From: Synergistetes bacterium ADurb.Bin155
GTDB taxonomy: Bacteria; Synergistota; Synergistia; Synergistales; Thermovirgaceae
Reading direction: 5' to 3'
Assembly (NCBI GenBank): GCA_002070395.1
Contig: MWDE01000005.1
Coordinates: forward strand, 22,800 to 86,799
DNA: 64,000 nucleotides
Each line of letters begins with the position of its first letter. The stretch's first letter is position 1. The position numbers and the translations under genes were made by a program. Positions 1,950-48,375 of this stretch are shown here, one piece after another. The notes beneath the pieces were generated by a model. The model saw nothing but the letters and a program-made list of their open reading frames with translations. It searched no databases and had not been told where the DNA came from.

Positions 1950-2035
1950 TGGTGCCGGAGGGGGGACTCGAACCCCCACAGGGTTGCCCCCGGCGGATTT
2001 TGAGTCCGCTGCGTCTGCCATTCCGCCACTCCGGC
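1950..2035 (-). tRNA. tRNA-Leu (anticodon CAA), CCA encoded
   Basis: 86-nt cloverleaf read by hand. Acceptor is GCCGGAG/CTCCGGC, anticodon stem GCGGA/TCCGC with loop CU-CAA-AA. It has a long variable arm, T-arm GGGGG-TTCGAGT-CCCCC and 3' ACCA. Confidence 0.9.
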
Positions 2036-2178
2036 AAGCGAAGATAGTAGTACCACAGGGTGGGTCTTCTGTCCAGACAAGAAATGATATCTCCGTAGGG
2101 GGTAGAAAGAGGGCGCCGGTCGGCTTTTTTGTTCTGAATGGCGGCCCTTTCTTCATGGAAATTGAAAAAGGAGGTTTT

Positions 2179-2910
2179 TCAAGGAATATCTTCTGGGCGA
2201 TCCAGCTCTTGCCCAGCTTCCTTGCGAATCCTCTCGAAGTACTTCCGGCAGATCATACCAGCTATATCGATGGACTTCCCAAAATGGGAAGTGATAGCTT
2301 CAACCAGCTTCCCGGTCTCTTTTCCTCTGATGGCATTTATCATCTCCACGTGCTCGTTATAAAAACCCTCCCGGTATTCCTCCGCCAGGGTGATCTCCCG
2401 GCGGCACTGCAAGTCCCTGTTCCACAAGATCCTCAAATGTTGGGATATTAACCTGTTAGGGAACAGGGAATAATAAAGAGAATGGAACAAGTGGTTCTGG
2501 TTCATGGCCTTGTTGTATTTCGTAGCTCTTGAAAGCAATAAGAATTTTTGGTTGACCTTGTGCATTTCCCGTAAAACCTTTTCAACCTTAGGGTTGCCGT
2601 AATCGATCCCCGCCACCATATTTTCCGCGACATGCCTTTCCAGCACGTACTGCATTTCCAGAGTTTCCTTGAACCTTTCGAAGGACGGGCTGGCGACGCG
2701 CCACCCCAGCCACTCCTGGTAAACCACTATTTCCTCAGCCTCCAGGGCTTTTAAAGCTTCCCTCACGGGGATCTTGCTCACCCCGAATTCTTTGGCGAGC
2801 TGGTCTATGTTGATGCGTTCACCGGGCTTTATCCTTTCGTCAACGATCATCTCTTTCAAGATGCTTTTTATCTTCATCGCTATTGTGCTGTGTCGGATCT
2901 TCAAGCTCAT
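2179..2910 (-). CDS. GntR-family transcriptional regulator (wHTH + FadR/FCD-like C-terminal domain)
   Basis: N-terminal IKPGERINIDQLAKEFGVSKIPVREALKALE is a GntR wHTH. The start was set at MSLKIRH (ATG 2910). Confidence 0.85.
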   Translation of the reverse strand: MSLKIRHSTIAMKIKSILKEMIVDERIKPGERINIDQLAKEFGVSKIPVREALKALEAEEIVVYQEWLGWRVASPSFERFKETLEMQYVLERHVAENMVAGIDYGNPKVEKVLREMHKVNQKFLLLSRATKYNKAMNQNHLFHSLYYSLFPNRLISQHLRILWNRDLQCRREITLAEEYREGFYNEHVEMINAIRGKETGKLVEAITSHFGKSIDIAGMICRKYFERIRKEAGQELDRPEDIP

Positions 2911-2981
2911 TCCAACCCACCTCGACAAGAAAGGCCCGAAGGACTGGGGCATTCCCCGGGGCATTGACTGGTCTTCAAAAA

Positions 2982-3010
2982 ATTATACCGGTAAAAGCAT
3001 AATCTGTTAA
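2982..3010 (-). promoter_or_regulatory. sigma70-like promoter for the GntR gene
   Basis: On the minus strand: TTAACA, 17-nt spacer, TATAAT. It lies ~70 nt upstream of ATG 2910. Confidence 0.5.
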
Positions 3011-3381
3011 TCCCTGTTCAACCTAAAACCCGGAGTCGGTAGAAGTATAGGTGAGGTGCAATAAACACCAAGACACCCTTTCGTGAATAACGCTGCGGGA
3101 GGTACAACCCGGCCCAAGCTGAAGAAAGGCAGGGCCGGCCCGGACAGGGGAACGTGCCCCGGCAGGTTCCGGCCCTTTCGCAACGATCGAATCGTTCCCC
3201 CTTATTCCCAAACAAGAGAAAAGAGGGGAAAGGTGACGGGGCCCTCCCCCTCGTGAAAATCTGTAACGGCTACATCCGGTCCAGGTCGGGCTCTCAAGGT
3301 CCTACCGTTGCTGGTTAAACCAAAGTGCCCGCGGTTCCCTTTCGCCGCAAAGATCAACGATGTCCCCACTCGGTTGCCGGG

Positions 3382-4671
3382 CTACATAAACGCAATTGTC
3401 GGCAGGTAGGTGATGATCGACGGGAAGGCAATCACCAAAATAATGAACGCCAGCATGAGCAGGAGAAAAGGGAAAGACCATTTCGCGATCTGAACGACCG
3501 AGTAGGGAGTTATCCCGCTGATCAGGAACAGGTTGAACCCCACCGGCGGGGTGATGTTCGCAATCTGGATCAGCAGGACGATGTAGATCCCGAACCAGAT
3601 AGGACTGAAGCCGAAGGCGCTTATTATCGGCATGAAGATCGGGACCGTCATGACGATCATGGAAAAGCCGTCGATCAGGCACCCCAGGAACAGGTAAACA
3701 AGGGTGATCAAGGTCATGACCACCAGAGGACTGACGTTGCTCCCGAGCACCAGGCGGCACAAATACTTCGGTATCCCCAGGAAACCCAGGGCCGTTGAAA
3801 AAAACGAGGCCCCTATCAGGATCATTATGATCATGCTACTTGTGCTTGTGGTGCTTTTCAGGATCTCAATCATTTCCCTGACTGATAACGACCTGAACAA
3901 CAGGCCTATGAGGATAGCCCCGCCTACCCCGATGGCGGCGGCTTCCGTCGGGGTTGACCACCCCATGTAAATGCTGCCCAGGACTGCACTTATAAGGGTG
4001 ACAGTGGGTGTGACCTGCAGGAGGCTCATCGCCCATTCCCTGCGGGAAAAGATCTCACCCTTTCTTTGCTTGAAGCCGGGGTCGCGAAGCCCCACGTAAA
4101 GGGAAAAAAGTGCCATGAGGAAGATCCCCGGGACGAGACCGGCGACGAACATCTGCCCGATGCTCACATTCGCCACGATCCCGTACACGAGCATCGGCAT
4201 GCTGGGGGGTATCAGGATCCCGAGGGTCCCCGCGCTGGCGAGGCTGCCGATGATCAATTTGGGGTCGTAACCACGCTTTTCCAGTTCGGGTATCGTTATT
4301 TTGCCGACCGCCGCCGTAGTGGCTGCCACGGAACCGCTTATCGCGGCGAAGAGGGCGCTCGCCAAGACGTTTATCTGAAGCAACCCTCCCGGGATCCTCG
4401 AAACCCAGGGCGTCAACCCTTTGAAGAGCTGGGTGGATATTTTTGTTTTGACCAATATGTCACCCATGAGGATGAACAACGGGAGAGCCAGAAGGATGCT
4501 GCTGTTCGTCACATTCCACATCATCGCGGAAAGGATCTTCTCGACGGGGAGGTCCAGGAAGAGGTACATCGAGGACAAACTGACGATGAACAGCGAAACC
4601 CCGATCCAGATGCCCGAGGCCAGGCAGACGGTCAAACTGATCAAGATGAATAACAACGCTTGAGCCTGCAT
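3382..4671 (-). CDS. dctM: TRAP transporter large permease subunit (DctM family)
   Basis: 429-aa polytopic membrane protein with a DctM-type sequence. It sits 2 nt downstream of the DctQ-like gene. Confidence 0.9.
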   Translation of the reverse strand: MQAQALLFILISLTVCLASGIWIGVSLFIVSLSSMYLFLDLPVEKILSAMMWNVTNSSILLALPLFILMGDILVKTKISTQLFKGLTPWVSRIPGGLLQINVLASALFAAISGSVAATTAAVGKITIPELEKRGYDPKLIIGSLASAGTLGILIPPSMPMLVYGIVANVSIGQMFVAGLVPGIFLMALFSLYVGLRDPGFKQRKGEIFSRREWAMSLLQVTPTVTLISAVLGSIYMGWSTPTEAAAIGVGGAILIGLLFRSLSVREMIEILKSTTSTSSMIIMILIGASFFSTALGFLGIPKYLCRLVLGSNVSPLVVMTLITLVYLFLGCLIDGFSMIVMTVPIFMPIISAFGFSPIWFGIYIVLLIQIANITPPVGFNLFLISGITPYSVVQIAKWSFPFLLLMLAFIILVIAFPSIITYLPTIAFM

Positions 4672-4673
4672 CC

Positions 4674-5138
4674 CTAATTCTCCTTTACCACGAGCTTGTA
4701 GGCAACAATGGTCATCAGGAAAAACGCGCCGAGGACCATGAAAAACTGGGGAATAGCTAAGGGGGTCTCGGAGACCTGGAGGGAAACCGCTTTATAGAGA
4801 TAGGATTCCCTGAAAAGCAGGAAAAGGACGTAGGTGAGATATAAAGAAAAAACGAAACCCGCGAAATACCTTATCTTGGTGATGACGAACCGGGCCCGTT
4901 CGTTTCGGATCTTGTCAATAAAATCAATACGGATGTGGGCGTCGCAATACTCACCAAAGGACAATCCCCAAAAAGAAATAACCGCCATCATGTACCCGGC
5001 GTATTCAGTCACCACGAAAAAGGTTTTCCCGAAGGCGCTCCGATACACTATTTCGGCTATCATCATCACTGCGGAAAGAAGGATCAAAATGCCGACGATC
5101 AGCCCGTTCAGATCGTAAAACCTGGATAACTTATTCAT
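4674..5138 (-). CDS. dctQ: TRAP transporter small permease subunit (DctQ family)
   Basis: Four-TM small protein immediately upstream of dctM. Start chosen at MNKLSRF (ATG 5138), which is preceded by GGAGG. Confidence 0.8.
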   Translation of the reverse strand: MNKLSRFYDLNGLIVGILILLSAVMMIAEIVYRSAFGKTFFVVTEYAGYMMAVISFWGLSFGEYCDAHIRIDFIDKIRNERARFVITKIRYFAGFVFSLYLTYVLFLLFRESYLYKAVSLQVSETPLAIPQFFMVLGAFFLMTIVAYKLVVKEN

Positions 5139-5314
5139 GACAAGCCCTCCGAGGACCAGCTTTTTCATACAAAAGGGCGGGAGTCGAGGGGTGTCGAAGA
5201 AGGACAAATGACTCCCGCCGTGAAACACACTCAATAAATCCTTTGCCTATCGGTCAGCCTTCCCCCGTGGATCCCTATCTTCAGGGAAAACCGTCCAAGG
5301 CACCCAAAGTTTAA

Positions 5315-6310
5315 CTAGTTATATTTATTCCAGAATTCCTCGTACAACGGCTTGGCTTTGGGGTTCTTATCTATCCATTCCCTGCTGACCTTCTCACCCA
5401 GTTTCTTCAGTTCCTCCTGGATCCCGAGGTCCACCTCCATCATCTTGCAGCCGTGTTCCTCGCAGATCTTCAAGTTGCCTTCTTCTTCCTGCCTCGCCTT
5501 CTGCCACAGGTAGTCCTCTACCTCTTCAGAGGCTTTCATTATCGCTTCCTGCTGACTTGGGGTCAGTTTCTCGAAAGCCTTGAGGTTAATATTTATCATG
5601 CTGGTCGTGATCTCCATCTTGATGGGGTAGTAGTACTTCAGAACTTCCCAAAGCTTCCCATCTCTGACGGTAGTGCCGGAAGTGATGATCGAATCGATGA
5701 CCCCCGTTGCCAGGGAGGTGTAGCATTCGCTGAAGGGCATGGCCAGAGGAGTTGCGCCGACGGCCGTCATGATAAGGGCGCCGTTCCTGTCAAAGGTCCT
5801 CGTTTTGAGGCCTTTCATGTCGGCGATGGAATTGATCTCCTTCTGGGTCCATAAACCCGCGAAGGGCCAGGGGGCGATGTAAAGGATCTTCTGACCCCAT
5901 TCCTTGGCCGCCTCGTCATAGTACTTCTTGGCCATCACGTCAAAATCCCTGGCGGAATCCCAGTCATCGATCATGAAGGGCAGCGACCGGATACCGAAAA
6001 TGGTTTCATCGCCGGCGACCCCGGTGGAAACGATCTCCGCGATATGAACGGAACCATCCCTGACGGCCCTCAGAAGATCGGGTCCCTGGAAGCCGAGGGA
6101 ACCCGCCAGCTCCACGTTAAGTACCACTTCACCCTTCGTGTATTCCTCGATCTTTTCAGCCAGGACCAGGAGACCCTGTGCCTGGTAATTGGTCTCCGGG
6201 TACACCGAATAGGCCGTCAATGTCACGGCAAACGCCGCACCAGCCAAAGAAAGCATAAAAACCGCTACAAGCGAAGCTGCAAAAATAAGACGCCTGGTCT
6301 TACCCATCAT
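5315..6310 (-). CDS. dctP: TRAP transporter substrate-binding protein (DctP family)
   Basis: Signal peptide (LIFAASLVAVFMLSLAGAAFA) plus a DctP-like body. Start chosen at ATG 6310, 6 nt after GGGGAGG. It overlaps the AOR stop by 11 nt. Confidence 0.88.
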   Translation of the reverse strand: MMGKTRRLIFAASLVAVFMLSLAGAAFAVTLTAYSVYPETNYQAQGLLVLAEKIEEYTKGEVVLNVELAGSLGFQGPDLLRAVRDGSVHIAEIVSTGVAGDETIFGIRSLPFMIDDWDSARDFDVMAKKYYDEAAKEWGQKILYIAPWPFAGLWTQKEINSIADMKGLKTRTFDRNGALIMTAVGATPLAMPFSECYTSLATGVIDSIITSGTTVRDGKLWEVLKYYYPIKMEITTSMININLKAFEKLTPSQQEAIMKASEEVEDYLWQKARQEEEGNLKICEEHGCKMMEVDLGIQEELKKLGEKVSREWIDKNPKAKPLYEEFWNKYN

Positions 6311-8192
6311 ATAAAACCTCCCCAAACAATTCTCTCTGTTTTCCTTTGCTCACAACCCCGTTCTCGTGCCATCCTCTTGCCTCATAATACTCGTCGAGAA
6401 TAACTTCATTCTCGACGATGCTGCCCTCTGCCGGCCCCTCGGGCATAGGTTCAACCCTGAACCTTTTCGGAAGTAGGTCTTCTTTTCTCCTGCAACCGTT
6501 TTCCAGGTTCATGATCCTTTCAAGGTTGATAAGCCGTTCGCTGGATCTCGCCAATTCCTTGTACCCGTCGCTGGAGTCAAAACCCGAGACAGCCCTGTAA
6601 AACCCATCGATCTCGTCACACCGGGCAAAGATCGAGTCCAGGCTCTTGGCGAAGACGAACATTCCGTACCGGCACAGCCCAAGCAGGTCCGCCACGTTCG
6701 TATAGTCCTCCATGAACTTCAACAGCCTTCCCTTGCCTCTTACACCGGTGAGCGTGGCCGCTTCCTCACTCCCAAAGAGGGATACCGCTTCCTGCTTGGT
6801 GAGAACCGTCTCAAAGGCACCCAAGGTCCGACAATTATCCGCCCCCCTGGAGGCGACGCCGAAACCCACCCCCCTCCCCTTGTACCCGCGCGGATCACAC
6901 CCTTCGAACTCCATCCCTTTTACCGTCAATAAGCAATCCCGCGTTTTCTCTCCCAGAGATCTCGACGCCCGCTCGCCCCCCTCGGCCAGGATATTACCCA
7001 CACCTTCTCTCGTAGCCACTTTACGGATCAGTTCAATTGATTCATCAACCTTGCCCCAACCCAACCCGACCCCGTCCAGGTCCTTGGCGGTGATGAAGTC
7101 CCTGTCGAGGCATTCCATGAGCCATGAGAGGACCGCTCCCATGGACATGAAATCAACGCCCTTGTTGTTGCTGAGTTTTGTCATTTTACATACGCTGGGA
7201 AGGTCGCTGTTCAGGATGCGGGCCCCGTAGTTTTGCATGGCGGCGAATTCCGGCCCGTGGACTTCATACTCGCCGTCAGTCTCGTTTTTGAACCTTGAAA
7301 TGCCCTTGCACTGGATATTACAGAAAATACATCCGTAGTGCCTTACTGTAAAAGTATCCCTTAAATATTTCCCCGAGATCTTTTCGTGCTGGTCCCAGAC
7401 TCCCGTTTGCAGGTTCTTTACTTCCAGGACGCCTATCTTGTTAAAACCCTCGATCGCCGTGGTGGCCCCGTATTGTTTGGCCCCTTCGTAACTCGGGTCA
7501 TTCTTGACCAGGGAATCCAGTCGCTTCATGAACCCCTTGTCCAGGCCCAGTTCATCAAACCTCGGGACCCCTCCCTGAACGACGATGGACTTGACCCCTT
7601 TATCGCCCATTACAGCCCCAAGCCCTGTCCTTCCCGCTGCGTGGGCGCCGGAATGGATCGAGGCGAACCTCACCCTGTTCTCCCCGCCGGGTCCTATGGT
7701 AAGGGTCGAGGACCGCTTTGAACTTCCGTAGCGCTGACGCAAAATCTCTTCGGTCTCACCCACGTCCCGGCCCCAAAGGTCCGCGGCATCCTCGAAAAGA
7801 CAGCCGTTCTTTTTTATAACCAAAAAGCAGGGGGAAGCGGATCTCCCGCGGATGACCACCTGGTCTATCTCGGCCCACTTGAGGAAAACGCCGAAATCTC
7901 CGCCGACATTTGAATCGCCCAGCAGACCGGTCAGGGGTGACTTTGAAGTGAGGGTCGTCCGGTTAGCAAAAAGGCAGGGCATACCGACCAATGCCCCCGG
8001 CGCGATCAGCAATTCGTTCTCATCGGAAAAAGCATCCGCCAGGTGCAGTTTCCTGGAGTAGGCGTAATGGGCGTTCAGCCCCCTGCCGCCAACGTATTTC
8101 CTGAACTCCTGGGGTTCGATGATCTCGAATCCGAAAGATCTCTTCTGAAGGTCAACGACAAGACGGCGCCCGCTATAGCAGGATCTGAACAT
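6300..8192 (-). CDS. aldehyde:ferredoxin oxidoreductase family protein (tungstopterin AOR family)
   Basis: 630 aa. N-terminus MF..CYSGRRLVVDL..R......E....KYVGGRGL and overall similarity match the AOR N- and C-terminal domains. Confidence 0.9.
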   Translation of the reverse strand: MFRSCYSGRRLVVDLQKRSFGFEIIEPQEFRKYVGGRGLNAHYAYSRKLHLADAFSDENELLIAPGALVGMPCLFANRTTLTSKSPLTGLLGDSNVGGDFGVFLKWAEIDQVVIRGRSASPCFLVIKKNGCLFEDAADLWGRDVGETEEILRQRYGSSKRSSTLTIGPGGENRVRFASIHSGAHAAGRTGLGAVMGDKGVKSIVVQGGVPRFDELGLDKGFMKRLDSLVKNDPSYEGAKQYGATTAIEGFNKIGVLEVKNLQTGVWDQHEKISGKYLRDTFTVRHYGCIFCNIQCKGISRFKNETDGEYEVHGPEFAAMQNYGARILNSDLPSVCKMTKLSNNKGVDFMSMGAVLSWLMECLDRDFITAKDLDGVGLGWGKVDESIELIRKVATREGVGNILAEGGERASRSLGEKTRDCLLTVKGMEFEGCDPRGYKGRGVGFGVASRGADNCRTLGAFETVLTKQEAVSLFGSEEAATLTGVRGKGRLLKFMEDYTNVADLLGLCRYGMFVFAKSLDSIFARCDEIDGFYRAVSGFDSSDGYKELARSSERLINLERIMNLENGCRRKEDLLPKRFRVEPMPEGPAEGSIVENEVILDEYYEARGWHENGVVSKGKQRELFGEVLYDG

Positions 8193-8219
8193 TCACACTC
8201 ACCCCAAAGTCTACAATAT

Positions 8220-8231
8220 ACGATATATCGT
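8220..8231. promoter_or_regulatory. perfect 12-bp palindrome ACGATATATCGT, candidate operator in the AOR-TRAP leader
   Basis: It lies between the predicted -10 (8245-8250) and the AOR start codon (8192), about +8 to +19 of the predicted transcript. Binding by a GntR-type regulator is inference. Confidence 0.4.
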
Positions 8232-8244
8232 TTTCTTTTGAAAA

Positions 8245-8272
8245 AGTATAGAATCTAGGATTTAATTGTCAA
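8245..8272 (-). promoter_or_regulatory. sigma70-like promoter of the AOR-TRAP operon
   Basis: On the minus strand: TTGACA, 16-nt spacer, TATACT. Confidence 0.6.
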
Positions 8273-8345
8273 CGCTCCGACTTGGCAAAAACCCTTTGAA
8301 AAATGGGGTGTACTCTCCATACCCCTTGGGGTAAAATACCTGCCG

Positions 8346-8777
8346 GTGGTGATAAGGATGGCTTTGGAAGAACTGGAGGGCTCCAGGGGGTGCTTCGTCT
8401 GCGACCGCAGCGGCGCGAACCCGAGATCCCTCGGCGTGGTTCTCTACTGGGACGGTGACTCCGGCCGGACGGTGATACCCTTCACCCCCGACGATACCTG
8501 GTGCGGTTACGAGGGCATCGTCCACGGGGGTATACTGGCTGCGCTCTGTGACGACGCCATGGCCTGGGCCGCCAGGCAGGCCCTTGGGGAATGGACCGTA
8601 ACGGCCGGCATGAGCATCCGCTTCCTGCGGCCCGTCAAGTCCGGCGCCGGGTACACGGCCTACGGAAGCGCCCTTTCGGTGGACGGCAGGAAGGTGAAAA
8701 CCGCCGCCCGAATCGTCGGTGAGGACGGTAAAATCTACGTCGACGCCAAGGCCACCTTCGTTGGGGTCAGACCTTGA
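8346..8777 (+). CDS. PaaI-family hotdog-fold thioesterase
   Basis: HGGILAALCDDAMAWAA core motif, ~140 aa. The last 5 codons and the stop lie inside repeat core copy A. Confidence 0.8.
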   Translation: MVIRMALEELEGSRGCFVCDRSGANPRSLGVVLYWDGDSGRTVIPFTPDDTWCGYEGIVHGGILAALCDDAMAWAARQALGEWTVTAGMSIRFLRPVKSGAGYTAYGSALSVDGRKVKTAARIVGEDGKIYVDAKATFVGVRP

Positions 8778-8795
8778 ATTTGAGCAATTGTATAC
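8761..8795 (+). repeat. 35-bp repeat core, copy A (TTGGGGTCAGACCTTGAATTTGAGCAATTGTATAC)
   Basis: One mismatch to the consensus shared by copies B, C and E. Confidence 0.95.
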
Positions 8796-8810
8796 GAAAA
8801 GGGCAAGATC

Positions 8811-8873
8811 CGTGAATCGTAAATCGTGAATCGGGAATCGGGAACCAAAAACCGTGAATCGTAAATCGTAAGA
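8811..8873 (+). repeat. in-phase heptamer array (9 units)
   Basis: CGTGAAT CGTAAAT CGTGAAT CGGGAAT CGGGAAC CAAAAAC CGTGAAT CGTAAAT CGTAAGA, all in a single 7-nt register. Confidence 0.9.
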
Positions 8874-8941
8874 GCAAAAACAAAAAACCAAGGCAATCGA
8901 AAGACCAAAAACTGCACACGCCAATATAGGAGGTTCGTGAT

Positions 8942-11633: not shown

Positions 11634-12920
11634 CCCGTGAAGCCGGGCCATCCCCGGTTCCTCGCCGAGGCCGCCCGGCCTGTAGAACCTCATCGGCCGG
11701 TCCATGTACTTTTGGGCCACCCAGTGCCCCGGGAAGTCGTGGGGGTAGAGGTACCCCTTGCCGCCGGGCCTCAGGTGGAGGGGAACCTCCTGTAGTTCGC
11801 CCCGCTCAATGGCCGAAAGAGCCCCGTCGATGGCCTTGTAGGCGCTGTTGCTCTTCGGCGCCAATGAGAGGTAGATGACGGCCTCCGAGAGTATTATCCT
11901 CGCCTCGGGGAGCCCCACGAAGTCCGATGCATAGGCGGCGCCGGCCGCCACCGAGAGCGCCCTCGGGTCGGCGAGCCCCACGTCCTCGGCGGCGAAGACC
12001 AGGAGCCTCCGGGCCACGAAACGCACGTCCTCGCCCCCGGCCACGAGCCGACCCAGCCAGTAGACGGCGGCGTCAGGGTCGGAGCCCCTCATGCTCTTGA
12101 TCAGCGCCGAAATGATCCTGTAGTGGTCGTCCTGGTCCCGGTCGTAGCGCTGCAAAGCCTTGGGCGAGACGTTCCTCACCGTCTCCGCGTCGATGACGCT
12201 CCCCCCGCCGGCGGCCACGGCGTGGGCCGAAAGCTCGAGCCTTGTCAGCGCCTGGCGGGCGTCACCGCCGGCACCGAGGGCGATCTCCTCCAGGGTCCGG
12301 CCCGAGGCCGAGAGCTCCAGCTCACCCAGCCCCCGCTCCCTGTCAGAGAGGGCTCTCTCCAGCAGTCTCACCAGGTCCCCGGCCCCCAGGGGCCGAAGTT
12401 CATATACCACGACCCTGGAGAGGAGTGTCTTGTTTATCTCGAAGTAGGGATTTTCCGTGGTGGTCCCCACCAGCACCAGGTCGCCCTTTTCCACCGAGGG
12501 GAGCAGGGCGTTCTGCTGCTGACGGTTGAAGTGGTAGATCTCGTCGACGAAGGCCACCGGCGCCCGGCCGGTGAGGTCCTTGAGGCGCTTCGCCTCGGCC
12601 ACCAGCTCCCTCAGGGCCGCGACGTTGGCCGAGACGGCGTTGATCTCGAGGAAGCCCCTCCCAGTCAGGGAGGCCATCAGGCGGGCGATGGTCGTCTTGC
12701 CCACGCCGGGGGGGCCGTAGAGTATGCAGCTGGGCACCCGCCCCGACCGGATCGCCCTCGCCAGGGGGGCATCCCCCGACAGGAGGTGCCCCTGCCCGGC
12801 CGTCTCCTCGAGGCTCCTGGGCCGCATCCTCTCGGCCAGGGGAACCTCCCACTTACTGGCGGGAGCCGCTTCCCCCGGTACCTCGTCCCAGAGGCTCCTC
12901 TTGTCCCTCAGTTCATCCAT
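11481..12920 (-). CDS. rarA: replication-associated recombination protein A (AAA+ ATPase RarA/MgsA)
   Basis: Walker A is GPPGVGKTTIA and Walker B is FVDEIHRF-like (FVDEIYHFN), with an MgsA C-terminal domain. Start set at MDELRD (ATG 12920). The 3' end overlaps the EamA gene by 153 nt. Confidence 0.9.
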   Translation of the reverse strand: MDELRDKRSLWDEVPGEAAPASKWEVPLAERMRPRSLEETAGQGHLLSGDAPLARAIRSGRVPSCILYGPPGVGKTTIARLMASLTGRGFLEINAVSANVAALRELVAEAKRLKDLTGRAPVAFVDEIYHFNRQQQNALLPSVEKGDLVLVGTTTENPYFEINKTLLSRVVVYELRPLGAGDLVRLLERALSDRERGLGELELSASGRTLEEIALGAGGDARQALTRLELSAHAVAAGGGSVIDAETVRNVSPKALQRYDRDQDDHYRIISALIKSMRGSDPDAAVYWLGRLVAGGEDVRFVARRLLVFAAEDVGLADPRALSVAAGAAYASDFVGLPEARIILSEAVIYLSLAPKSNSAYKAIDGALSAIERGELQEVPLHLRPGGKGYLYPHDFPGHWVAQKYMDRPMRFYRPGGLGEEPGMARLHGLKSDGHDADEDEDDPARQAGGELLAEEERGEEGRQEGPDGNDADHGVDGG

Positions 12921-13882
12921 GAGAGGACGGCCTCCTCCACCATGTCCGCCCTCGAGGGGAGTGCCAGGGGCGTCCCGTCCCTGGAGATCATCACCTGGGG
13001 GAAGCGCTCCCCCAGGACCTGGGCCAGCACCGAAAGCAGGGGCCTGTCGACGAGGGAGAGGGGCAAAAAGGGCGCCTCCTCCCACTGCTCCAGTGATAGC
13101 CTTGCCTTGGGCGCGATCCGAAGCCCGCCCACGCCGAGTGCCGCCGCGGCCAGCGCCACGGAGAGGACCTCGGGCGAAGTATCCGGGAGGGCCGCCTCTA
13201 TCTCCCAGGCCCTTTCGAGCCACTCTCTCCCCCGCTCCCTCTCCAGTTCCCGGTATTCCCAGGGCACCAGCGGCTCCGGGGCCCCGAGGGACGCCACGAA
13301 GTCCGCCAGGCGGCCGTAGGAGGCGTCGGCCCACCTCTCCCAGTCGGGGTTGCTCCGCTCGACCAGGACGGCCCTCATCCCGGCCCTACGCGCGCCGTAG
13401 AGGTCGTAGATGAAGTCTCCCACCATCAGGCAGAGCATCGGCTCCACGCCGATGGCCCCGGCGGCGGACCAGAGCGCCTGGGGGTCGGGCTTCAGCGGAC
13501 CCTCGTCCCGGGAGAGCACGACACCGGGCAAGTTTATCCCGCTCCGCTTAGCCGCCTCGAAGATGGAGTCCCGGCAGTTCCGGGAGACCACGGCCCAAGG
13601 GACCTTGCACATCTCCAGCCACTCCAGCAGTTCATGGGCGCCCTGAACGGGCGTCGCCTTACGGGCACCCTCCATCTCCAGTTCGTAGAGTTCCCTCTCC
13701 AGGTCGGCCCGACGGCTCCGCTCCAGCATGTCGGCGGCCTCCACCAGGGGGACCCGTTCGCCCTTGAAGTACTTGGCCCTGATGGGGCCGAAATCAAGCT
13801 TCGTGTCGGCCAGGACCCCGTCCCAGTCGAGGATGAAACCCCGTGACATCGACGGGTGCCAGAAGGGCGCGGCGACAGCCAT
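12908..13882 (-). CDS. HAD-superfamily hydrolase with an uncharacterised ~120-aa C-terminal extension
   Basis: Motif I is ILDWDGVLADT and the distal motif is MVGDFIYDL. Start chosen at ATG 13882, preceded by GAGGAGG. It overlaps the rarA start by 13 nt. Confidence 0.75.
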   Translation of the reverse strand: MAVAAPFWHPSMSRGFILDWDGVLADTKLDFGPIRAKYFKGERVPLVEAADMLERSRRADLERELYELEMEGARKATPVQGAHELLEWLEMCKVPWAVVSRNCRDSIFEAAKRSGINLPGVVLSRDEGPLKPDPQALWSAAGAIGVEPMLCLMVGDFIYDLYGARRAGMRAVLVERSNPDWERWADASYGRLADFVASLGAPEPLVPWEYRELERERGREWLERAWEIEAALPDTSPEVLSVALAAAALGVGGLRIAPKARLSLEQWEEAPFLPLSLVDRPLLSVLAQVLGERFPQVMISRDGTPLALPSRADMVEEAVLSWMN

Positions 13883-13940: not shown

Positions 13941-14201
13941 ATACCCCGCTCCCCGTGCAAAAGAAGAAACCCCCGCGAGTGCCGTGACACGAAGGCCTTG
14001 ACCCGTTCCAAACTAGGTGGAAACCTCACCCGCCTTTGCGGGGTAGCGCCTTGGCGCCGCCATTGCCGGCGGGTAGATCGGTCTCCCACGACCGGGTGTT
14101 GGCTCAAGGCACTTCACCATGTTCACGAACACCGCAGGGCCTGTTCTCTTTTACCCGTTGCACCGATATTATATCATAACACCCGACAGGAGGGGTTCAA
14201 C

Positions 14202-18342: not shown

Positions 18343-18367
18343 CCCCCGCCGCGCCGGCGGCCCTTAT

Positions 18368-18399
18368 GAAAAAGGGTCCCGGCATTCGCCGGGACCCTT
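18368..18399 (-). terminator. intrinsic terminator after the 146-aa hypothetical gene
   Basis: Perfect 12-bp stem AAGGGTCCCGGC/GCCGGGACCCTT with loop ATTC, followed on the minus strand by TTTTC. Confidence 0.6.
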
Positions 18400-18416
18400 C
18401 CGAAGCGAGGTCAAGA

Positions 18417-18857
18417 TCAGTAGATGAGCTTGCTCTTCCCCTTGCCCTTACCGCTGAGCATGTCCAGTTGCTGGAGGACCGCCGGCGAAGCCACGTCGAT
18501 CTTCGGCTTCTCCGCCTGCTGCTTCGCCAGTTCCTGCAGCTTCTTCTCGTAATCCTCCATGGCTTTCTTGATGGCCGCCGCGTCGCCCTTGACCCATTGG
18601 AGTATCCCCTCGGCGACGGTACGGATCACGTCGTCGGCGGGGACCTCCTGGATGAGGCCCAGGTCGGCGAGGATCCTGTGCTCCTCCCTGATGGAATCGA
18701 CGATGTCCTCATCGGAGATCAGGCCCTTGCGGTACATGGCCCTGGCCAGGATGTTGAACTTCGTCTTGAGGTTCTCATCGTTGAAGGCCAGGCTGTCCAC
18801 CCTGGCCAGGAGCATGGACAGCACCTCGTCAAGACTTATCTGCATCGGCATCTGCAT
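18417..18857 (-). CDS. hypothetical protein (146 aa, Lys-rich C-terminus)
   Basis: Start at MQMPMQ (ATG 18857). Coding-like composition and its own terminator. No motif recognised. Confidence 0.55.
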   Translation of the reverse strand: MQMPMQISLDEVLSMLLARVDSLAFNDENLKTKFNILARAMYRKGLISDEDIVDSIREEHRILADLGLIQEVPADDVIRTVAEGILQWVKGDAAAIKKAMEDYEKKLQELAKQQAEKPKIDVASPAVLQQLDMLSGKGKGKSKLIY

Positions 18858-19850: not shown

Positions 19851-19885
19851 TTGGGGTCAGACCTTGAATTTGAGCATTTGTATAC
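19851..19885 (+). repeat. 35-bp repeat core, copy B (consensus)
   Basis: Identical to copies C and E. It begins 4 nt after the YitT stop. Confidence 0.95.
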
Positions 19886-20330
19886 AGGAAGGGCAAAATA
19901 CGTGAATCGTAAATCGTGAATCGAAGGGGCAAAACCAACAATCAGGAATTGGAAGAGCGAAAAACCGGAAAACAAGGCGACAGGAAACAGTCGTCAGGAG
20001 GCAGAAAGAACTCAAGGCCATAAAAAAGCAGACATAAGGCGACAGCCTGCGGAAAACTCAAGGGCATGGTACCGGGAACACTTTGGTTCTGCCGATCCAT
20101 GCCCTTCGTTTTTCGTATTGCCTGCGCCTTTCTTTTACGTCTAACGTCTAACTTCTCACGCTCTTTTACTTTTCGCCTTTGTCCTTGCCCTTCCTGCCGC
20201 CCGTTGCCTGACGCCTGTCTCCTTGTTTCTTGGTTTTTCGTCTCCCGTCTCACGTCTTACGCTCTTAAAATTTGGCCTTGCCCCTTCGATTCACGATTAA
20301 CGGCCCTTACAACTCGCGGCACTTGCGATT
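19886..20330. repeat. ~450-bp imperfect palindrome built from repeat modules
   Basis: Centre stem is AAGGGCATGG (20060-20069) / CCATGCCCTT (20097-20106). An outer 18-nt perfect inverted match is CGTGAATCGAAGGGGCAA (19915-19932) / TTGCCCCTTCGATTCACG (20278-20295). Further matched blocks lie between them. Confidence 0.85.
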
Positions 20331-20349
20331 CACGCTTTTCTAAAGGATC

Positions 20350-24699: not shown

Positions 24700-24897
24700 A
24701 AGCCGTCTCCCGCCCCAAGGTTTTCCCCGTTGCCTGGTTTTTGTCCTTCCGTCTTACGTCTCCCGTCTCACGCTCTCCGGTTTTTCCCTGTCTCCCTGTC
24801 GCCTTGCCTTTGCTCTTCCGTCTCACGTCTCACCTCTCACGCTCTTAAAGTTTGGCCTTGCTCCTTCGATTCACGATTCACGATTTACGATTCACGG
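24700..24897 (-). repeat. repeat-module block filling the glgB-GH57 intergenic region
   Basis: GTCTTAC/GTCTCCC/GTCTCAC heptamers, then CACGCTCTTAAAGTTTGGCCTTGCTCCTTCGATTCACGATT. The latter is near-identical to 20258-20303. CGATTCA heptamers follow. Confidence 0.85.
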
Positions 24898-29336: not shown

Positions 29337-29437
29337 CTCCCATGATCAGTATTCCATTCTACCGGAACCCGCCAAATAATGCTGTTTCTTGCCCCTTGTC
29401 ATTGGCCTTCCCCTTGATCTCTGCCCCTGGTCCTTGT

Positions 29438-29551
29438 CTTGATCCTGGCCTTGATCCTGGTCTTGATCCTGGCCTTGATCCTGGCCTTGATCCTGGCCTT
29501 GATCCTGGCCTTGATCCTGGTCTTGATCCTGGTCCTCGTCTTGATCCTGGT
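29438..29551 (+). repeat. 12-bp tandem repeat CTTGATCCTGGY (8 contiguous units, then a 6-bp gap and a 9th unit)
   Basis: Read directly. The units abut with no spacers. Confidence 0.95.
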
Positions 29552-29765
29552 CTTTGTCTTTGTCCCTGCCCTTGCCCTGTTCCTCCCTCGCCCTCACCTT
29601 TGCCCTTGTCTTAGGCCCTCTCGATCCCATGACCCCTAACGACAGCATTGGTTCAACCTTCCACCCACATTTTCCCTCCCGATCCCCTCCCGCTCCTTCA
29701 CCGCCATCTCATCTCCCCATCCCGCGCCCCCGCTTTTTGCCCCTAAGCCTTGGCCCTTCAGGTTT

Positions 29766-29821
29766 ACGATTCACGATTCACGATTCACGATTCACGATTC
29801 ACGATTCACGATTTACGATTT
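29766..29821 (-). repeat. heptamer tandem array (6x ACGATTC + 2x ACGATTT on the plus strand, i.e. CGTGAAT/CGTAAAT on the minus strand)
   Basis: Read directly. It lies adjacent to core copy C. Confidence 0.95.
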
Positions 29822-29849
29822 ACGGAACTTACCCTTCCTACCTCATAAT

Positions 29850-29884
29850 GTATACAAATGCTCAAATTCAAGGTCTGACCCCAA
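29850..29884 (-). repeat. 35-bp repeat core, copy C (consensus, inverted)
   Basis: The reverse complement is identical to copy B. Confidence 0.95.
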
Positions 29885-29886
29885 TC

Positions 29887-29936
29887 AGGTCTGACCCCAA
29901 TCTCCCACAAATTCAAGGTCTGACCCCAATCTCCCA
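29887..29936 (-). repeat. two extra partial copies of the core outer end
   Basis: AGGTCTGACCCCAATCTCCCA occurs at 29887-29907 and at 29916-29936. The second is preceded by CAAATTCA from the core. Confidence 0.9.
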
Positions 29937-32080: not shown

Positions 32081-32985
32081 TGAGAGTCCTGGGGGCGGAC
32101 CTGGGGGGGCACTTCATAAAGGCCGCCCTCGTCGAGGGCGGGGCGGTGGCGGCCCGGGAGACGGTCCCAACCCCCGAAAGCCGCTCCCCCGCTGACGTCA
32201 TCGCCGCCGTCGCGGCCCTGGCATCGAGGCTGGACCCGGAACGTTCGGTCAAAGCCCTGGGCGTCGGCTTCCCTGGTATGCTGGACAGCCGGCGGGAAAA
32301 GGTCCTCCAGGCTCCCAACTTTCCCCTCATGGTGGGCTACCCCTTCCGGTCAGCCCTCGCCCAGGCATGCGGCCGCGAAGTGGCCCTCGAGAACGACGCC
32401 CACTGCGCCGCCCTGGGGGAGTGGGCTTTCGGAGCCGCCAAGGACCTGACGGACTTCGTCCTTCTCACCCTTGGGACGGGCATCGGCGGGGCGATCGTAT
32501 CGGGGGGCCGCCTGGTCACGGGGGCCTACGGCAAGGCCGGCGAACTGGGGCACCTGGCCGTGGCCGGCGACGCCCCCTGCGGCTGCGGAGCTTTGGGGCA
32601 CGCCGAGGCCCTCTTCGGCGCCGACGCCCTGGGCCGGGCCTTCTCCGAAGCCGGCATAGAAGGCGACCTCCCGGAGCTCTGGCTCCGACGCGGCGAACCC
32701 CGCCTGGCACCGCTGTGGGAAAAGGCCCTGGACGCCCTGGCGAGGCTCATCGCCTCCGTGTCCCACGCCCTCGACCCCCAGGCCGTCATCCTCGGCGGCG
32801 GCCTCTCCCGCGGCCTCGGCCTCGTTGAGACCCTCCGGCCGCTGGTCCTGCGCTACACCGCCCCGCCCTTCAGGGAGACCTTCGACCTCCGCCTCGCCGC
32901 CCTCGGCGACGACGCCGCCCTCCTCGGCTCCGCCCTCGGCTTCGCCTTGGGGTCAGACCTTGAATTTGATCAATTGTGTACATAA
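32080..32985 (+). CDS. ROK-family sugar kinase (glucokinase-like)
   Basis: Carries GADLGGHFIKA, LTLGTGIGGAIV, and the zinc motif GHL...C.CG..GH.E. The start overlaps the OYE stop (TAATG). The last 12 codons and the stop lie inside repeat core copy D. Confidence 0.85.
   Translation: MRVLGADLGGHFIKAALVEGGAVAARETVPTPESRSPADVIAAVAALASRLDPERSVKALGVGFPGMLDSRREKVLQAPNFPLMVGYPFRSALAQACGREVALENDAHCAALGEWAFGAAKDLTDFVLLTLGTGIGGAIVSGGRLVTGAYGKAGELGHLAVAGDAPCGCGALGHAEALFGADALGRAFSEAGIEGDLPELWLRRGEPRLAPLWEKALDALARLIASVSHALDPQAVILGGGLSRGLGLVETLRPLVLRYTAPPFRETFDLRLAALGDDAALLGSALGFALGSDLEFDQLCT
32947..32981 (+). repeat. 35-bp repeat core, copy D (3 mismatches)
   Basis: TTGGGGTCAGACCTTGAATTTGATCAATTGTGTAC. 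Confidence 0.95.
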
Positions 32986-33217
32986 GGGCGTGAGACGGGA
33001 GACGTTAGACGGTAGACGTAGGGTCAAAAGCTTGAAGCCAAAGGAAAACTCGTAAATCGGGGATCGAAAAAAAGTGGCAGTGGACGACAGCCGCTCCCCG
33101 CTTTTTGCTTTTGGTCTTCCGTCTTACTTCTCACGCCCTTCAGGCCCTCCCTGCCTCCTATTGCCTCGTTTTTTGTTTTTCCGTCTTCCGTCTCACGTCT
33201 ACCGTCTCACGCCCTTA
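32983..33217. repeat. pair of inverted heptamer arrays (CGTGAGA/CGGGAGA/CGTTAGA/CGGTAGA flavour)
   Basis: The left arm is TAAGGGCGTGAGACGGGAGACGTTAGACGGTAGACG (32983-33018). The right arm is CGTCTTCCGTCTCACGTCTACCGTCTCACGCCCTTA (about 33182-33217). Confidence 0.85.
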
Positions 33218-33225
33218 GTGTTTCC

Positions 33226-34819: not shown

Positions 34820-34870
34820 CCCGTCCTCCGATTCTCCTCCTATACTCCTCGCCTTATTCTTTTGATCTTT

Positions 34871-34968
34871 CGTCTAACGTCTTTCGTCTCCCGTCTTACG
34901 CCCCTTAGGTTTTCCTGCCGCCTGTCGCCTGGTTTTCCGATTCACGATTCACGTATTTTGTCCTTTTC
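34871..34968 (-). repeat. heptamer arrays internal to core copy E
   Basis: CGTCTAA CGTCTTT CGTCTCC CGTCTTA..., then CCGATTCACGATTCACG and the linker GTATTTTGTCCTTTTC. Confidence 0.85.
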
Positions 34969-35003
34969 GTATACAAATGCTCAAATTCAAGGTCTGACCC
35001 CAA
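34969..35003 (-). repeat. 35-bp repeat core, copy E (consensus, inverted)
   Basis: The reverse complement is identical to copy B. Together with copy D it forms an inverted pair around the AbiE genes. Confidence 0.95.
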
Positions 35004-41290: not shown

Positions 41291-42541
41291 TTGAAGCTCT
41301 GGGTAATAAACCAGTACGCTTCCAAGCCTGACGTTGCCGGGTTGACCCGGCATTTCGAACTGGCTAAAAGGCTCATCGGGTCGGGTATAAGGACACTGAT
41401 AATCTATGGGAGCTTTGACCTTTACCTAAAAAAGCAGCCCACTAACGATGACCTGCCAAAAAAGCCCAAGGTCCAGCTATCGGAGTTCGAAGGCGTCCAA
41501 TTCCTGACGATCCCCACACCGCCTTACAGGGACAATAGGTCTTTAGGGCGGATTATAAACATGATCGCTTTTAGGCGGCGTGCCTACAGCGAAATGGCAT
41601 TGGGCCGGCATGGGAAACCGGATATGATCCTGGGTTCGACGATGACCCTTTTCGGGGCCGACGCAGCGAGAATACTGGCGAAACAGTTCGACGTCCCCTT
41701 CGTCTACGAGGTGAGGGACCTCTGGCCCCTTACACCCATAGAACTGGGCGGTTACTCCCGATGGCATCCTTTCCTGGTCTACCTGGACCATCTGGACCGG
41801 AAACTGGCTCGGTCGGCGGACCTAGTGATAATCACAGCACCGTTGATGAAGGAGTACTACAAAGAACGTTTCGGCATCCCCGATGAGAAGTTCCTATGGA
41901 TCACCAACGGGACGGACCTGGAACTTTTCAAGAACTTGCCCCAGGCCGATGAAGAAGCGGGGAAAGATTCTTTCGACATTTGCTATGCCGGGGCCCACGG
42001 CCTAGCCAACGGGCTCGACCAGGTCTTCGACAAGTTGCCCGCTGTCACCCGAAAGCACCCCGAGATCCGCCTTACCCTCGTCGGCGACGGACCGTTGAAA
42101 CCCCGCCTGAGGGAGCGAGCGCAAAAGGAAGGCCTTCCAGTCTGTTTCCTGGACGCCGTGCCTAAAAATGAACTACCCCCAATATTGAACAAGGCCGACG
42201 CGCTGTTAACCTACCTTGAACCCTGCCGCCTCTACCGCTACGGCATAAGCCTGAACAAACTGGCAGATTACCACGCGATGGGCAAGCCGATACTTTTCAT
42301 AGGAGACTGTGCAGAGAACCCGGTAATGCAATCGGGGGCAGGCCTGATCGCCCAGAGTATTGAAGATTTCCCTTCCGTTCTCAATAAAGTAATCCAAATG
42401 TCTCCAAAAGAAAGGCAGGAAATGGGATACAGGGGTCGCGCCTACGCTGAGGAGCATTACGACTGGGCGGCGTTGGCGGAGAAAATGTCAATCACTCTGG
42501 ATAAGCTAATAGCGCATAGGTCGGATCATGAAGAAGCCTAA
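41291..42541 (+). CDS. glycosyltransferase family 4 (WbuB-like)
   Basis: The N-terminus is MKLWVINQYA.P......TRHFELAK.L. It has a GT-B C-terminal domain and a TTG start. Confidence 0.85.
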   Translation: MKLWVINQYASKPDVAGLTRHFELAKRLIGSGIRTLIIYGSFDLYLKKQPTNDDLPKKPKVQLSEFEGVQFLTIPTPPYRDNRSLGRIINMIAFRRRAYSEMALGRHGKPDMILGSTMTLFGADAARILAKQFDVPFVYEVRDLWPLTPIELGGYSRWHPFLVYLDHLDRKLARSADLVIITAPLMKEYYKERFGIPDEKFLWITNGTDLELFKNLPQADEEAGKDSFDICYAGAHGLANGLDQVFDKLPAVTRKHPEIRLTLVGDGPLKPRLRERAQKEGLPVCFLDAVPKNELPPILNKADALLTYLEPCRLYRYGISLNKLADYHAMGKPILFIGDCAENPVMQSGAGLIAQSIEDFPSVLNKVIQMSPKERQEMGYRGRAYAEEHYDWAALAEKMSITLDKLIAHRSDHEEA

Positions 42542-46227: not shown

Positions 46228-46307
46228 GAAATCTAAAAACCGCGATGGTTCATTATAGAGGACAATAAAATATCATAATCTTGTATACTGTCAATATATA
46301 TCCTTTC

Positions 46308-47742: not shown

Positions 47743-48071
47743 GACAAACTTGACCCTGAACAGTGGATATTTCGGTTCAAATTTCCCGACTTGCAGGAAA
47801 AGGTCGTGGGGATGAAACAAAATATCGCTAAACTGGGGCTAGACCCAGAACAACAGAGAAGCATACTCCAAAAATATTACAGAACAATCGAATTCATAGC
47901 GGGGGCTGGGACAAAACTGAACCAAAACAACCCTACGCCCGGATGATCTCCTCATATATCTCCCAGTCCTTTTCCGACAGAAAGGAGCTGTTGTGCCAGA
48001 GGAGGGTTACGGCCCCGCCAAACCTCCGACATTAGTCTTTCCACTTTCCCGCCCAGCTCATCTTTGACATC

Positions 48072-48109
48072 TGTTTTTGAAAACCCCGAGGAATCCCAAT
48101 TCCTCGGGG
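48072..48109 (-). terminator. intrinsic terminator closing the ImmA/DUF4411 transcription unit
   Basis: 11-bp perfect stem CCCCGAGGAAT/ATTCCTCGGGG with loop CCCA, followed on the minus strand by TTTTCAAAAA. Confidence 0.7.
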
Positions 48110-48147
48110 TAACAAATAGGTGTTCCGTTACAGATTATTAAAAAGTT

Positions 48148-48375
48148 TTATCCATCCGGAGAAGTCGTGGAAGGTATAGCCTCAACAGGAACATCAACGT
48201 CTACCGTCAGTAAGCCTGTAAAGTTTTCTTTGCCTGCATTCAGGACAAAACCTTTGTTAGTTTTCCAGCAAAATCCCAACACTAATTTCCTGGCGGCCGA
48301 CTCGGTACCAATAAAGTGTTCATAAGCCATGAGGTCCATAGCACCATCCTGATACCAGTGCCAAATAGAGTACAA
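48148..48375 (-). CDS. hypothetical small protein (75 aa), possible third gene of the module
   Basis: This ORF lies between the DUF4411 gene and the terminator. No motif recognised and no clear RBS checked. Confidence 0.3.
   Translation of the reverse strand: MYSIWHWYQDGAMDLMAYEHFIGTESAARKLVLGFCWKTNKGFVLNAGKENFTGLLTVDVDVPVEAIPSTTSPDG

Follow-up and report, generated by a model that had tools for sequence, protein, structure and literature searches.

Putative orphan ends of a RAYT-like transposase are joined in fixed polarity to heptamer arrays in Synergistetes bacterium ADurb.Bin155

Background

What kind of element is represented by a 35-nt sequence that recurs six times in 64,000 nt of bacterial DNA, each time next to an array of 7-nt units? 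The stretch in question, subsequently referred to as the window, comes from Synergistetes bacterium ADurb.Bin155 (contig MWDE01000005.1, positions 22,800 to 86,799). An earlier note on this DNA had described the 35-nt sequence (the core) and its arrays as a modular intergenic repeat family of no recognized type. The repeat family proved to be genuine, modular and extragenic. Its core, to judge by sequence, is the terminal inverted repeat (TIR) of a RAYT-like Y1 transposase gene found in related contigs and in the same strain.

Results and discussion

Occurrence of the core

A search with up to three mismatches on both strands of the window returned the six cores at the coordinates and on the strands given by the earlier note, and 100 dinucleotide-preserving shuffles gave no match. 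Three cores are identical, as had been claimed, and the others deviate at one to three positions (Table 1). The outer end of the core reads TT-GGGGTCAG and the inner end GTATAC.

Species-representative genomes were then searched with an exact 23-mer, and metagenomes were scanned with a 21-mer from the outer end of the core. Only three of the species representatives in the collection contain the 23-mer, and each belongs to the Synergistota: the Thermovirgaceae metagenome-assembled genome (MAG) JAXGNU01, a Synergistaceae MAG and Synergistales 58_81. The metagenome scan yielded 51 stretches from digesters, sludge and sediment, which together with the window contain 84 core instances in 69 distinct contexts. 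After further fetches, the total rose to 121 core instances at 42 independent loci, the latter being defined by the outer flank. Since the seeds were exact matches to the outer 21–23 nt, the invariance of this part of the core is a consequence of the search by construction.

These are metagenome-type data, and repeats can break assemblies; the family might thus be an artefact of assembly or of collapsed repeats. We consider the chance of this to be negligible, because the same junctions occur in many independent assemblies. Cores and arrays were found again in NCBI MAGs as well as in JGI, ENA and Logan assemblies. Contig 7 of JAXGNU01 is 92–97% identical to the window from 8.3 to 34.4 kb, and JGI contig L073 is identical to window positions 52056–64000 (100.000% over 11,945 nt) and extends 8.6 kb beyond the window.

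Inverted cores bracket a transposase gene

When the contexts of the cores were aligned, some cores were seen to precede the start of a gene (MTRPLRLEFPGAVYHV...) and others the reverse complement of the end of the same gene. Contig L046 contains the complete arrangement (12211–13152), with two inverted cores around an open reading frame (ORF) of 285 aa; the left core ends 12 nt upstream of the start codon ATG, and the right core begins 1 nt after the stop codon. The same bracketing is found in L061; in L009/L030 it has one degenerate end. The 285-aa protein matches the Pfam family Y1_Tnp (PF01797, 44.1 bits, cut-off 23) and, at its C-terminus (residues 246–283), the domains HTH_28 (27.7 bits) and HTH_23 (25.6 bits). 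It also scores above the cut-off for the NCBIfam equivalog NF047646, 'REP-associated tyrosine transposase' (83.1 bits, cut-off 80). The best PDB match is 4ER8, the TnpA-REP protein of E. coli (E=2e-4), with alignment of the HUH motif HFH and of the tyrosine in RYVVLNPV (YxxxNP). At least 7835 related database proteins were found at E<=1e-10, and several of them carry the JGI label 'REP element-mobilizing transposase RayT'.

The association is not confined to one sequence. A 67%-identical ortholog from Thermovirga sp. (L063) is bracketed likewise in a different gene neighborhood, and its TIRs have co-diverged (TTGGGGTCAGACCTTGATTTTGAC...). The window itself contains no such gene according to tblastn, and L073 carries an intact copy ~7.6 kb to the right of the window. 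Given the identity of this contig with the window, the transposase gene is in the same strain as the six window cores. One TIR of this copy (L072/L073) is perfect, and the other is without its outer 13 nt. In every contig read for the exact transposase sequence, the gene was at the same locus.

Whenever two cores lie close together, their GGGG outer ends face outward. The spacing of the 21-nt matches in these pairs falls into three classes: 73–81 nt, in the manner of miniature inverted-repeat transposable elements (MITEs); 348–420 nt, with arrays and a hairpin; and ~890 nt, with the gene. The MITE-like inverted pairs were found in related contigs (L046 10824–10945, L007 and L015), and each of them is predicted to fold into one hairpin as single-stranded DNA (z about -10 to -11). 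Because inverted cores bracket the gene and the outer end of the core fits the GGGGWSAS motif of the transposase class discussed below, the 35-nt core is, on sequence grounds, the TIR of a RAYT-like Y1 transposase gene, and the six window copies are orphan TIRs.

The immediate surroundings of the gene vary. In L046, the right TIR adjoins part of a Gp49/HigB-like toxin gene, followed downstream by an HTH_3 antitoxin-like gene (13150–13363); in L032 the toxin fragment is missing and the TIR adjoins the HTH_3 gene directly. L061 (630–1561) has the left flank and left TIR of L046, a transposase that is only 54% identical and a right TIR with 4 mismatches. The transposase gene may have been replaced here within a conserved site.

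Comparison with TIRtrons, REP elements and IS200/IS605

RAYT-like genes flanked by long TIRs instead of REPs have been named TIRYTs or TIRtrons (Di Nocera et al. 2013, PMC3733652). Many of the flanking TIRs share GGGGWSAS (PMC3733652, PMC6006769), and some species have dispersed TIR families of moderate abundance, comprising single copies, dimers and clusters (PMC3733652). Most TIRYTs fall into TnpA-REP subclass 2.1, of which group 2.1.2 has Bac_DnaA_C, HTH_23 or HTH_28 domains at the C-terminus (Quentin et al. 2018, PMC6006769).

The transposase described here is likewise of the Y1/HUH RAYT-like type with an HTH_23/HTH_28 tail (subclass 2.1.2). Its gene lies between long inverted repeats and not between REP hairpins, the outer end of the core fits GGGGWSAS, and extragenic TIR copies are dispersed singly and in pairs. 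There are also differences. The 35-nt sequence is another one; the host belongs to the Synergistota; and heptamer tracts and foldbacks are attached to the orphan TIRs with strict polarity, an arrangement not described in the available portions of PMC3733652 and PMC6006769. Judged by these sequence features, the core belongs to the TIRYT/TIRtron class. The earlier note had seen no family of REP, BIME or MITE type in it and had named a match to a described insertion sequence (IS) or MITE terminus as a refutation. This part of the note does not stand: the core is the putative TIR of a RAYT-like transposase, fits the TIRYT motif and forms MITE-like pairs in related contigs, although it corresponds to a described class of terminus and not to a named IS.

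The REP/REPIN/BIME systems with RAYT genes in E. coli and Pseudomonas also combine a single-copy Y1 transposase gene flanked by inverted repeat copies with short extragenic repeats near gene 3' ends, in a mosaic with other motifs. The inverted doublets of REPINs, which fold as hairpins, have their counterpart in related contigs; the window contains no doublet. The solo core differs from a classical REP in being non-palindromic, in forming no stem-loop and in having neither a GTAG nor a CGTC tag (its ends are TTGGGG and GTATAC), and unlike in BIMEs the partner modules are 7-nt tandem arrays, not L, S, l or r motifs. The IS200/IS605 elements belong to the same superfamily (Pfam Y1_Tnp, with HUH motif and catalytic tyrosine). 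TIRs are absent from them; they carry subterminal hairpins and use a strict target of four or five nucleotides, in contrast to the 35-nt TIRs without hairpin or strict target found here.

Properties and flanks of the solo core

The small palindromes GGTC-A-GACC and GTATAC noticed before are present in the core, but no stable stem arises from them. The solo core forms no hairpin as single-stranded DNA; the minimum free energies (MFE) on the two strands are -0.9 and -0.6 kcal/mol (z +1.4 and +1.0). A sigma-70 or sigma-54 promoter within the core was considered by eye and rejected, because the spacing in TTGAAT-N11-TATAC is wrong and the -12 element is TTGA, not TTGC; a promoter scan found no promoter-like site inside any core. 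A small peptide on the reverse strand (MLKFKV) was dismissed as well, since its start codon is not conserved among core copies.

The outer end of orphan TIRs borders on unique DNA, in many cases at a stop codon or within one. Three window cores touch the ends of the genes for a 4HBT thioesterase, a ROK protein and a YitT-family protein, in line with the earlier remark that some copies clip gene 3' ends. The flanking ORFs are real genes (4HBT thioesterase, DUF2703, YitT-family, GH57, glycogen branching enzyme, YchF, ROK and AbiEii); genes other than those checked against Pfam were called with a home-made codon-usage scorer. In the 5' flanks of the 42 independent loci, we found neither a strict insertion target nor a target-site duplication. 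TGA directly precedes the core at 9 of these loci, where about 1/64 would be expected, and the 5' flanks are otherwise heterogeneous. At one locus the junction differs between strains (cagccc|core, cagcccCTGA|core and cagcccTTGA|core), and L029 has a 26-nt tandem duplication across a core junction. Such variants could stem from repeated events at a single site or from slippage on CCTTGA microhomology.

Heptamer arrays lie on the inner side of the core

Arrays were defined by a regular expression as at least three contiguous CGNNARN units, and Tandem Repeats Finder (TRF) served as a second method. The in-register heptamer arrays reported before were recovered: the expression finds 13 in the window, where by our estimate ~0.06 would be expected by chance, and there are no comparable tracts in the window at any other period from 5 to 11. 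Period-7 arrays according to TRF adjoin all six cores and occur in several other intergenic gaps (8811–8869, 19896–19923, 24867–24896, 29766–29824, 32992–33018, 34866–34897, 59724–59754, 61860–61881 and elsewhere). The array at 8811–8873 indeed keeps one register over nine units, of which one (CAAAAAC) is degenerate. A purine-rich linker, said to follow every core, was found after four or five of the six. The module CACGCTCTTAAARTTTGGCCTTGC, which had been listed as shared, is present at 20258 and 24838.

The units of the tracts have the form CGnnAnn. Among 302 units counted, CGTGAAT is the most frequent (103), followed by CGTAAAT (40), CGGGAAT (18), CGTTAAT (12), CGTGAGA (11) and CGGGAGA (10). 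We distinguish three main flavors, A-type (CGTGAAT), B-type (CGTGAGA) and C-type (ACAGGCG-like). The 12 delimited tracts cover ~2 kb in total, and tracts and cores together make up 3.5% of the window (Table 1). Their sense strand is 73% purine (A.38, G.35, C.16, T.11). The coarse purine content of whole intergenic gaps, compared with gene arrangement, was uninformative. The tract on the minus strand next to the core at 29850 is partly built from a 12-nt unit (CCAGGATCAAGG, sense strand), present ten times at 29412–29532 inside a weak 100-aa ORF (29346–29648). This region looks like another purine-rich tract flavor rather than a gene, and its ortholog in L014 is much shorter.

Core and array are joined in strict polarity. 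Arrays of at least two units within 120 nt are found in sense orientation on the inner, GTATAC side in 34 of 64 unique contexts with sufficient flank, in antisense orientation on this side in none of the 64, and on the outer side in only 3 of 64. Within the window, 7 of the 10 tract-bearing loci have a core or core remnant, and two more have a core in a sister strain.

Cyanobacterial STRR repeats had been suggested as conceptual kin with other units, and the arrays do share with them the tandem, intergenic 7-nt organization; the units of STRR1–3 are CCCCAGT, TTGGTCA and CAACAGT. TAACTGA repeats of Beggiatoaceae, Cyanobacteria and Bacteroidetes (PMC4679880) and the heptanucleotide repeats of Geobacter (PMC2700814) are further cases. 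All of these are intergenic tandem 7-nt units of variable copy number and restricted to certain lineages, as are the arrays described here. The arrays differ in unit sequence, in the mixture of several flavors per tract, in their strong purine asymmetry, and in that the tracts pair into foldbacks and are capped by a transposase TIR. By inspection only, CRISPR and integron attC sites were set aside: the units are contiguous without spacers, and there is no R''/L'' architecture.

Core and array could also be a structured non-coding RNA or 3'-untranslated region (UTR) element, considering that several copies immediately follow a stop codon, in what are probably 3' UTRs. Single-arm tracts fold no better than shuffles on either strand; this includes structures with G-U pairs (UCGUGA), a candidate that we rejected for sense and antisense alike. 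The solo core does not fold either, cores and arrays have no Rfam match at the gathering thresholds or at E<=1, as the earlier note had assumed, and the copy at 34969–35003 is probably untranscribed, being located between two predicted promoter-like sites that diverge. Such an RNA would also leave the inverted cores around the transposase gene unaccounted for, and it appears very unlikely.

Facing tracts form foldbacks around hairpins

Facing tracts form foldbacks of 350–500 bp that center on a terminator-like hairpin and carry a TIR at one outer end or at both. Within the window, the convergent gaps 19851–20340 and 32947–33225 each contain two facing tracts, whose arms are 75–90% complementary (Table 1). 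The first gap as a whole folds with z -8.4, and its central hairpin looks like a bidirectional terminator by its sequence; promoter and terminator calls in this study are consensus matches only. JAXGNU contig 6 (L002/L018) and its ortholog L054 contain a composite with a core at both ends, the core matches being 348–420 nt apart.

This architecture bears on the possibility that the tracts are functional cis elements, either directional insulators or heptad arrays bound by a protein, with the cores being incidental. Each convergent gap reads as a gene, its own sense tract, the hairpin and then the complement of the other tract. The RNA antisense to the tracts would be C/U-rich, G-poor and unstructured, like Rho-loading sites, and single arms are unstructured on both strands. 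In addition, CG and A recur at fixed positions every 7 nt. Cooperative binding to heptads (WATCACW; compare ATTCACG) is known from the omega repressor, and the arrays may resemble both these heptads and rut sites; alternatively, the HTH domain of the TIRYT might be the binder. The orientation of the tracts argues against such a role, since 3 of the 12 (59.6–63 kb) are antisense to both of their co-directional neighbors, and the tract at 34825–35003 lies between divergent promoter-like sites and is probably untranscribed. For these reasons, we also rejected transcription-coupled orientation as a rule. Moreover, tract content is not conserved between sister strains. A cis function of the tracts with incidental cores is thus unlikely.

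Tracts and cores vary independently between strains

Orthologous loci keep their outer flank, and inward of the core the ungapped similarity has a median of only 23 nt. Sister strains have gained or lost units and entire modules of the tracts, and this turnover is rapid. The allele of one strain at the thioesterase locus has ~220 nt of additional modules, distributed over three places. At the LemA locus, no two of four strains share the same left arm, and in one allele the foldback is reduced to a minimal hairpin. A growth zone restricted to the core-proximal end was rejected, since indels are spread over the whole length of the tracts.

The core is also polymorphic. At locus 24890 it is present only in L034, at the 5' edge of the tract. 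At locus 29940, the site of the core at 29850–29884, L014 is without a core and L017/L059 have one; at locus 61795 the core is missing from L024. The junction at which the array begins is unchanged in L014 and L024. Where the window has its 274-nt tract at locus 59677, L035 instead carries a core immediately before the hairpin. Core and arrays are therefore not one indivisible unit, as had been supposed, since each is present or absent independently of the other at orthologous loci. Transposition of core and tract as one unit was considered and is unproven; outside the transposase gene, unrelated loci share no inner sequence longer than ~57 nt.

We give a probability of roughly 0.7 to the following explanation: the cores are orphan TIRs of a TIRtron, and the tracts are the interior of decaying non-autonomous foldback elements bounded by TIRs. 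The TIRtron would consist of a single-copy TIRYT gene between two inverted cores with their GGGGTCAG ends outward. By analogy with TnpA-REP and IS200/IS605, the TIRYT may act in trans on single-stranded DNA at the TIR, and it may scatter TIR copies through extragenic space as in REP/RAYT systems. Presence/absence polymorphism of the core between strains is compatible with such mobilization. The tracts would turn over by slippage and ectopic recombination, and the central hairpins would terminate transcription. The whole could be regarded as a BIME-like mosaic of transposase end-repeat, minisatellite and hairpin. A benefit to the host, for example 3'-end termination, would be secondary and is unproven.

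Several observations weigh against this explanation. The sample of related loci was seeded with the core and is redundant and biased towards cores, and the available portions of PMC3733652 and PMC6006769 state no demonstration that a TIRYT acts on its own TIRs. The solo core is devoid of the hairpin that TnpA-REP and IS200/IS605 substrates have. The two-TIR array composite was seen at one locus only; each MITE-like pair is likewise known from a single locus, and none is in the window. Apart from the transposase gene, the longest inner sequence common to unrelated loci is ~57 nt, so that there is no direct sign of core and tract moving as a unit. Arrays are absent from ~60 kb of loci with a diverged core subtype (GACCG) and from ~13 kb of Thermovirga sp. 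with the variant TIR TTGATTTTGAC (L063–L065, overlapping copies of one locus). The existence of lineages with TIRs and without arrays indicates that the arrays are lineage-specific and not an obligatory product of the TIR/TIRYT system. Conversely, some tracts have no core (24700–24896, 59677–59950 and 62770–62900), and the starting point of the array at polymorphic loci does not depend on whether a core is present, which would also fit insertion of the core beside pre-existing arrays.

The last two points lead to a different explanation, in which the arrays are independent host minisatellites of intergenic space, comparable to STRR or TAACTGA repeats, and the TIRs home in fixed orientation to the 5' edge of a tract through a strand-specific target preference of the HUH enzyme. 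IS200/IS605 enzymes do insert in fixed orientation beside a short target. The unchanged tract boundary, seen at three orthologous loci, and the core-less tracts would be expected in this case. The core is joined to three array flavors, always via an A-rich junction, and the excess of TGA before the core would agree with a target preference. Yet no single target motif is found on either side of the core. Furthermore, a core in this or a sister strain at 9 of the 10 window tract loci is a tighter association than simple homing needs, and the outer end of the core always faces unique DNA, as an element boundary does. We regard independent minisatellites as possible, but not as probable.

A further idea is that the TIRYT itself makes or remodels the heptamer tracts at the inner face of orphan TIRs, by nicking the TIR, followed by slipped or templated repair synthesis. 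The tracts might then have been co-opted as directional spacers or insulators, or as heptad landing pads for the HTH domain; the latter is suggested by the resemblance between the A-type unit CGTGAAT and CTTGAAT inside the TIR. To our knowledge, no transposase-driven minisatellite generator has been described for HUH enzymes, and we hold this idea to be quite improbable. Decaying foldback elements bounded by TIRs remain the explanation that we prefer.

Table 1. Features of the repeat family in the window (a dot indicates that no strand applies)
Feature	Position	Strand	Remarks
Core	8761–8795	+	1 mismatch; supplies the stop codon TGA (8775–8777) of the 4HBT thioesterase gene
Single-arm tract	8796–8935	+	linker, then A-type CGTGAAT units; ends at the ribosome-binding site of the DUF2703 gene
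Core	19851–19885	+	identical to consensus; 3 nt past the stop of the YitT-family gene
Foldback, left arm	19886–20051	+	sense on +
Foldback, central hairpin	20052–20114	.	U-runs on both strands; z -5.2 (+), -4.3 (-)
Foldback, right arm	20115–20340	-	75–90% complementary to left arm; no core at outer end
Single-arm tract, core-less	24700–24896	-	between branching-enzyme gene and GH57 gene; first unit supplies the stop codon of the upstream gene
Single-arm tract	29346–29849	-	nine A-type heptamers (29762–29824), then purine-rich modules; extent missed by the earlier note
Core	29850–29884	-	identical to consensus
Two partial outer-end core copies	29885–29900 and 29908–29929	-	with TGGGAGA direct repeats; missed by the earlier note
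Core	32947–32981	+	3 mismatches; ROK gene reads through the whole core, stop at 32983–32985
Foldback, left arm	32982–33057	+	B-type CGTGAGA units
Foldback, central hairpin	33058–33121	.	significant on + only; z -2.6 (+), +1.2 (-)
Foldback, right arm	33122–33225	-	B-type units; 83% complementary to left arm; directly after AbiEii gene
Single-arm tract	34825–34968	-	A-, C- and B-type units; upstream of promoter-like site 34819–34792
Core	34969–35003	-	identical to consensus; between two divergent near-consensus sigma-70-like promoters
Tract, core-less	59677–59950	+	B- and C-type units; 274 nt
Terminator-like hairpin	59990–60030	-	followed by T-run; downstream of gene 60120–60611
Short opposing arm	60030–60120	-	
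Core	61795–61829	+	1 mismatch; same junction without core in strain L024
Single-arm tract	61830–62030	+	
Single-arm tract, core-less	62770–62900	+	starts at the -35 of a repeated promoter module
Diverged-core remnant and array stub	63299–63350	+	GGGGTCAGGGC at 63299–63309; left by deletion (comparison with L046 and L043); missed by the earlier note

Other features of the window

The core remnant near the right end of the window adjoins a truncated ATPase pseudogene (62924–63316), which is missing ~880 nt compared with L046 and L043. The deletion joins a GGGGTCA within the gene to the GGGGTCA of the diverged core (7-nt microhomology), and a second, small deletion at this pseudogene lies between two GGGC repeats.

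An identical AT-rich module of 21 nt, ACGAGTAATTTTATTGCTCTT, is located at 59641–59661 and 62748–62768 (+). On its minus strand, it contains a -10-like hexamer (TAAAAT), and the start of the adjacent array contributes a -35-like hexamer (TTGCCT/TTGCAT). Module and array start together look like a repeated promoter cassette for the minus-strand genes 58142–59635 and 62056–62610. The module was also found in L016 and L035, just upstream of cores.

The region from ~42500 to 55500 is a low-GC island (0.42–0.46, compared with 0.63–0.67 nearby) with low GC content at third codon positions (GC3) and without cores or arrays. It is part of a polysaccharide-export/glycosyltransferase region, of which the Pfam calls Poly_export, Wzz and Bac_transf (35.1 to ~40.6 kb) lie outside the island. 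The island was probably acquired horizontally.

The only above-threshold Rfam and ARAGORN matches in the window are a 6S RNA (13966–14143, minus strand; 59.6 bits, gathering threshold 46.4) and a tRNA-Leu(CAA) (1950–2035, minus strand). In the JAXGNU MAG (L001), tRNA-Leu directly adjoins the thioesterase region, and ~6.2 kb of the window (2080–8304) are absent or moved, which suggests an indel next to the tRNA gene. A sub-threshold match to BjrC68, an sRNA of Bradyrhizobiaceae, at 18364–18444 (minus strand; 30.5 bits against a gathering threshold of 39, E=6e-4) lies in the divergent gap just upstream of the YitT-family gene and is probably due to chance.

Conclusions

The repeat is now a testable system: its 35-nt TIR is defined, the strain itself harbors an intact TIRYT gene in single copy, and natural alleles differ in whether the TIR is present at a given junction. 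The clade thereby offers clean substrates for testing the action of a TIRYT on its TIRs. On the practical side, the tracts cut into the ends of real genes, and they are a probable cause of fragmented metagenome assemblies in Thermovirgaceae. In the literature consulted, we found no description of a transposase TIR that caps heptamer minisatellites of several flavors in strict polarity and with foldbacks. This strict polarity, with the transposase end on one side and the hypervariable array on the other, is a regularity that could show how minisatellites such as the STRR and TAACTGA repeats arise and turn over.

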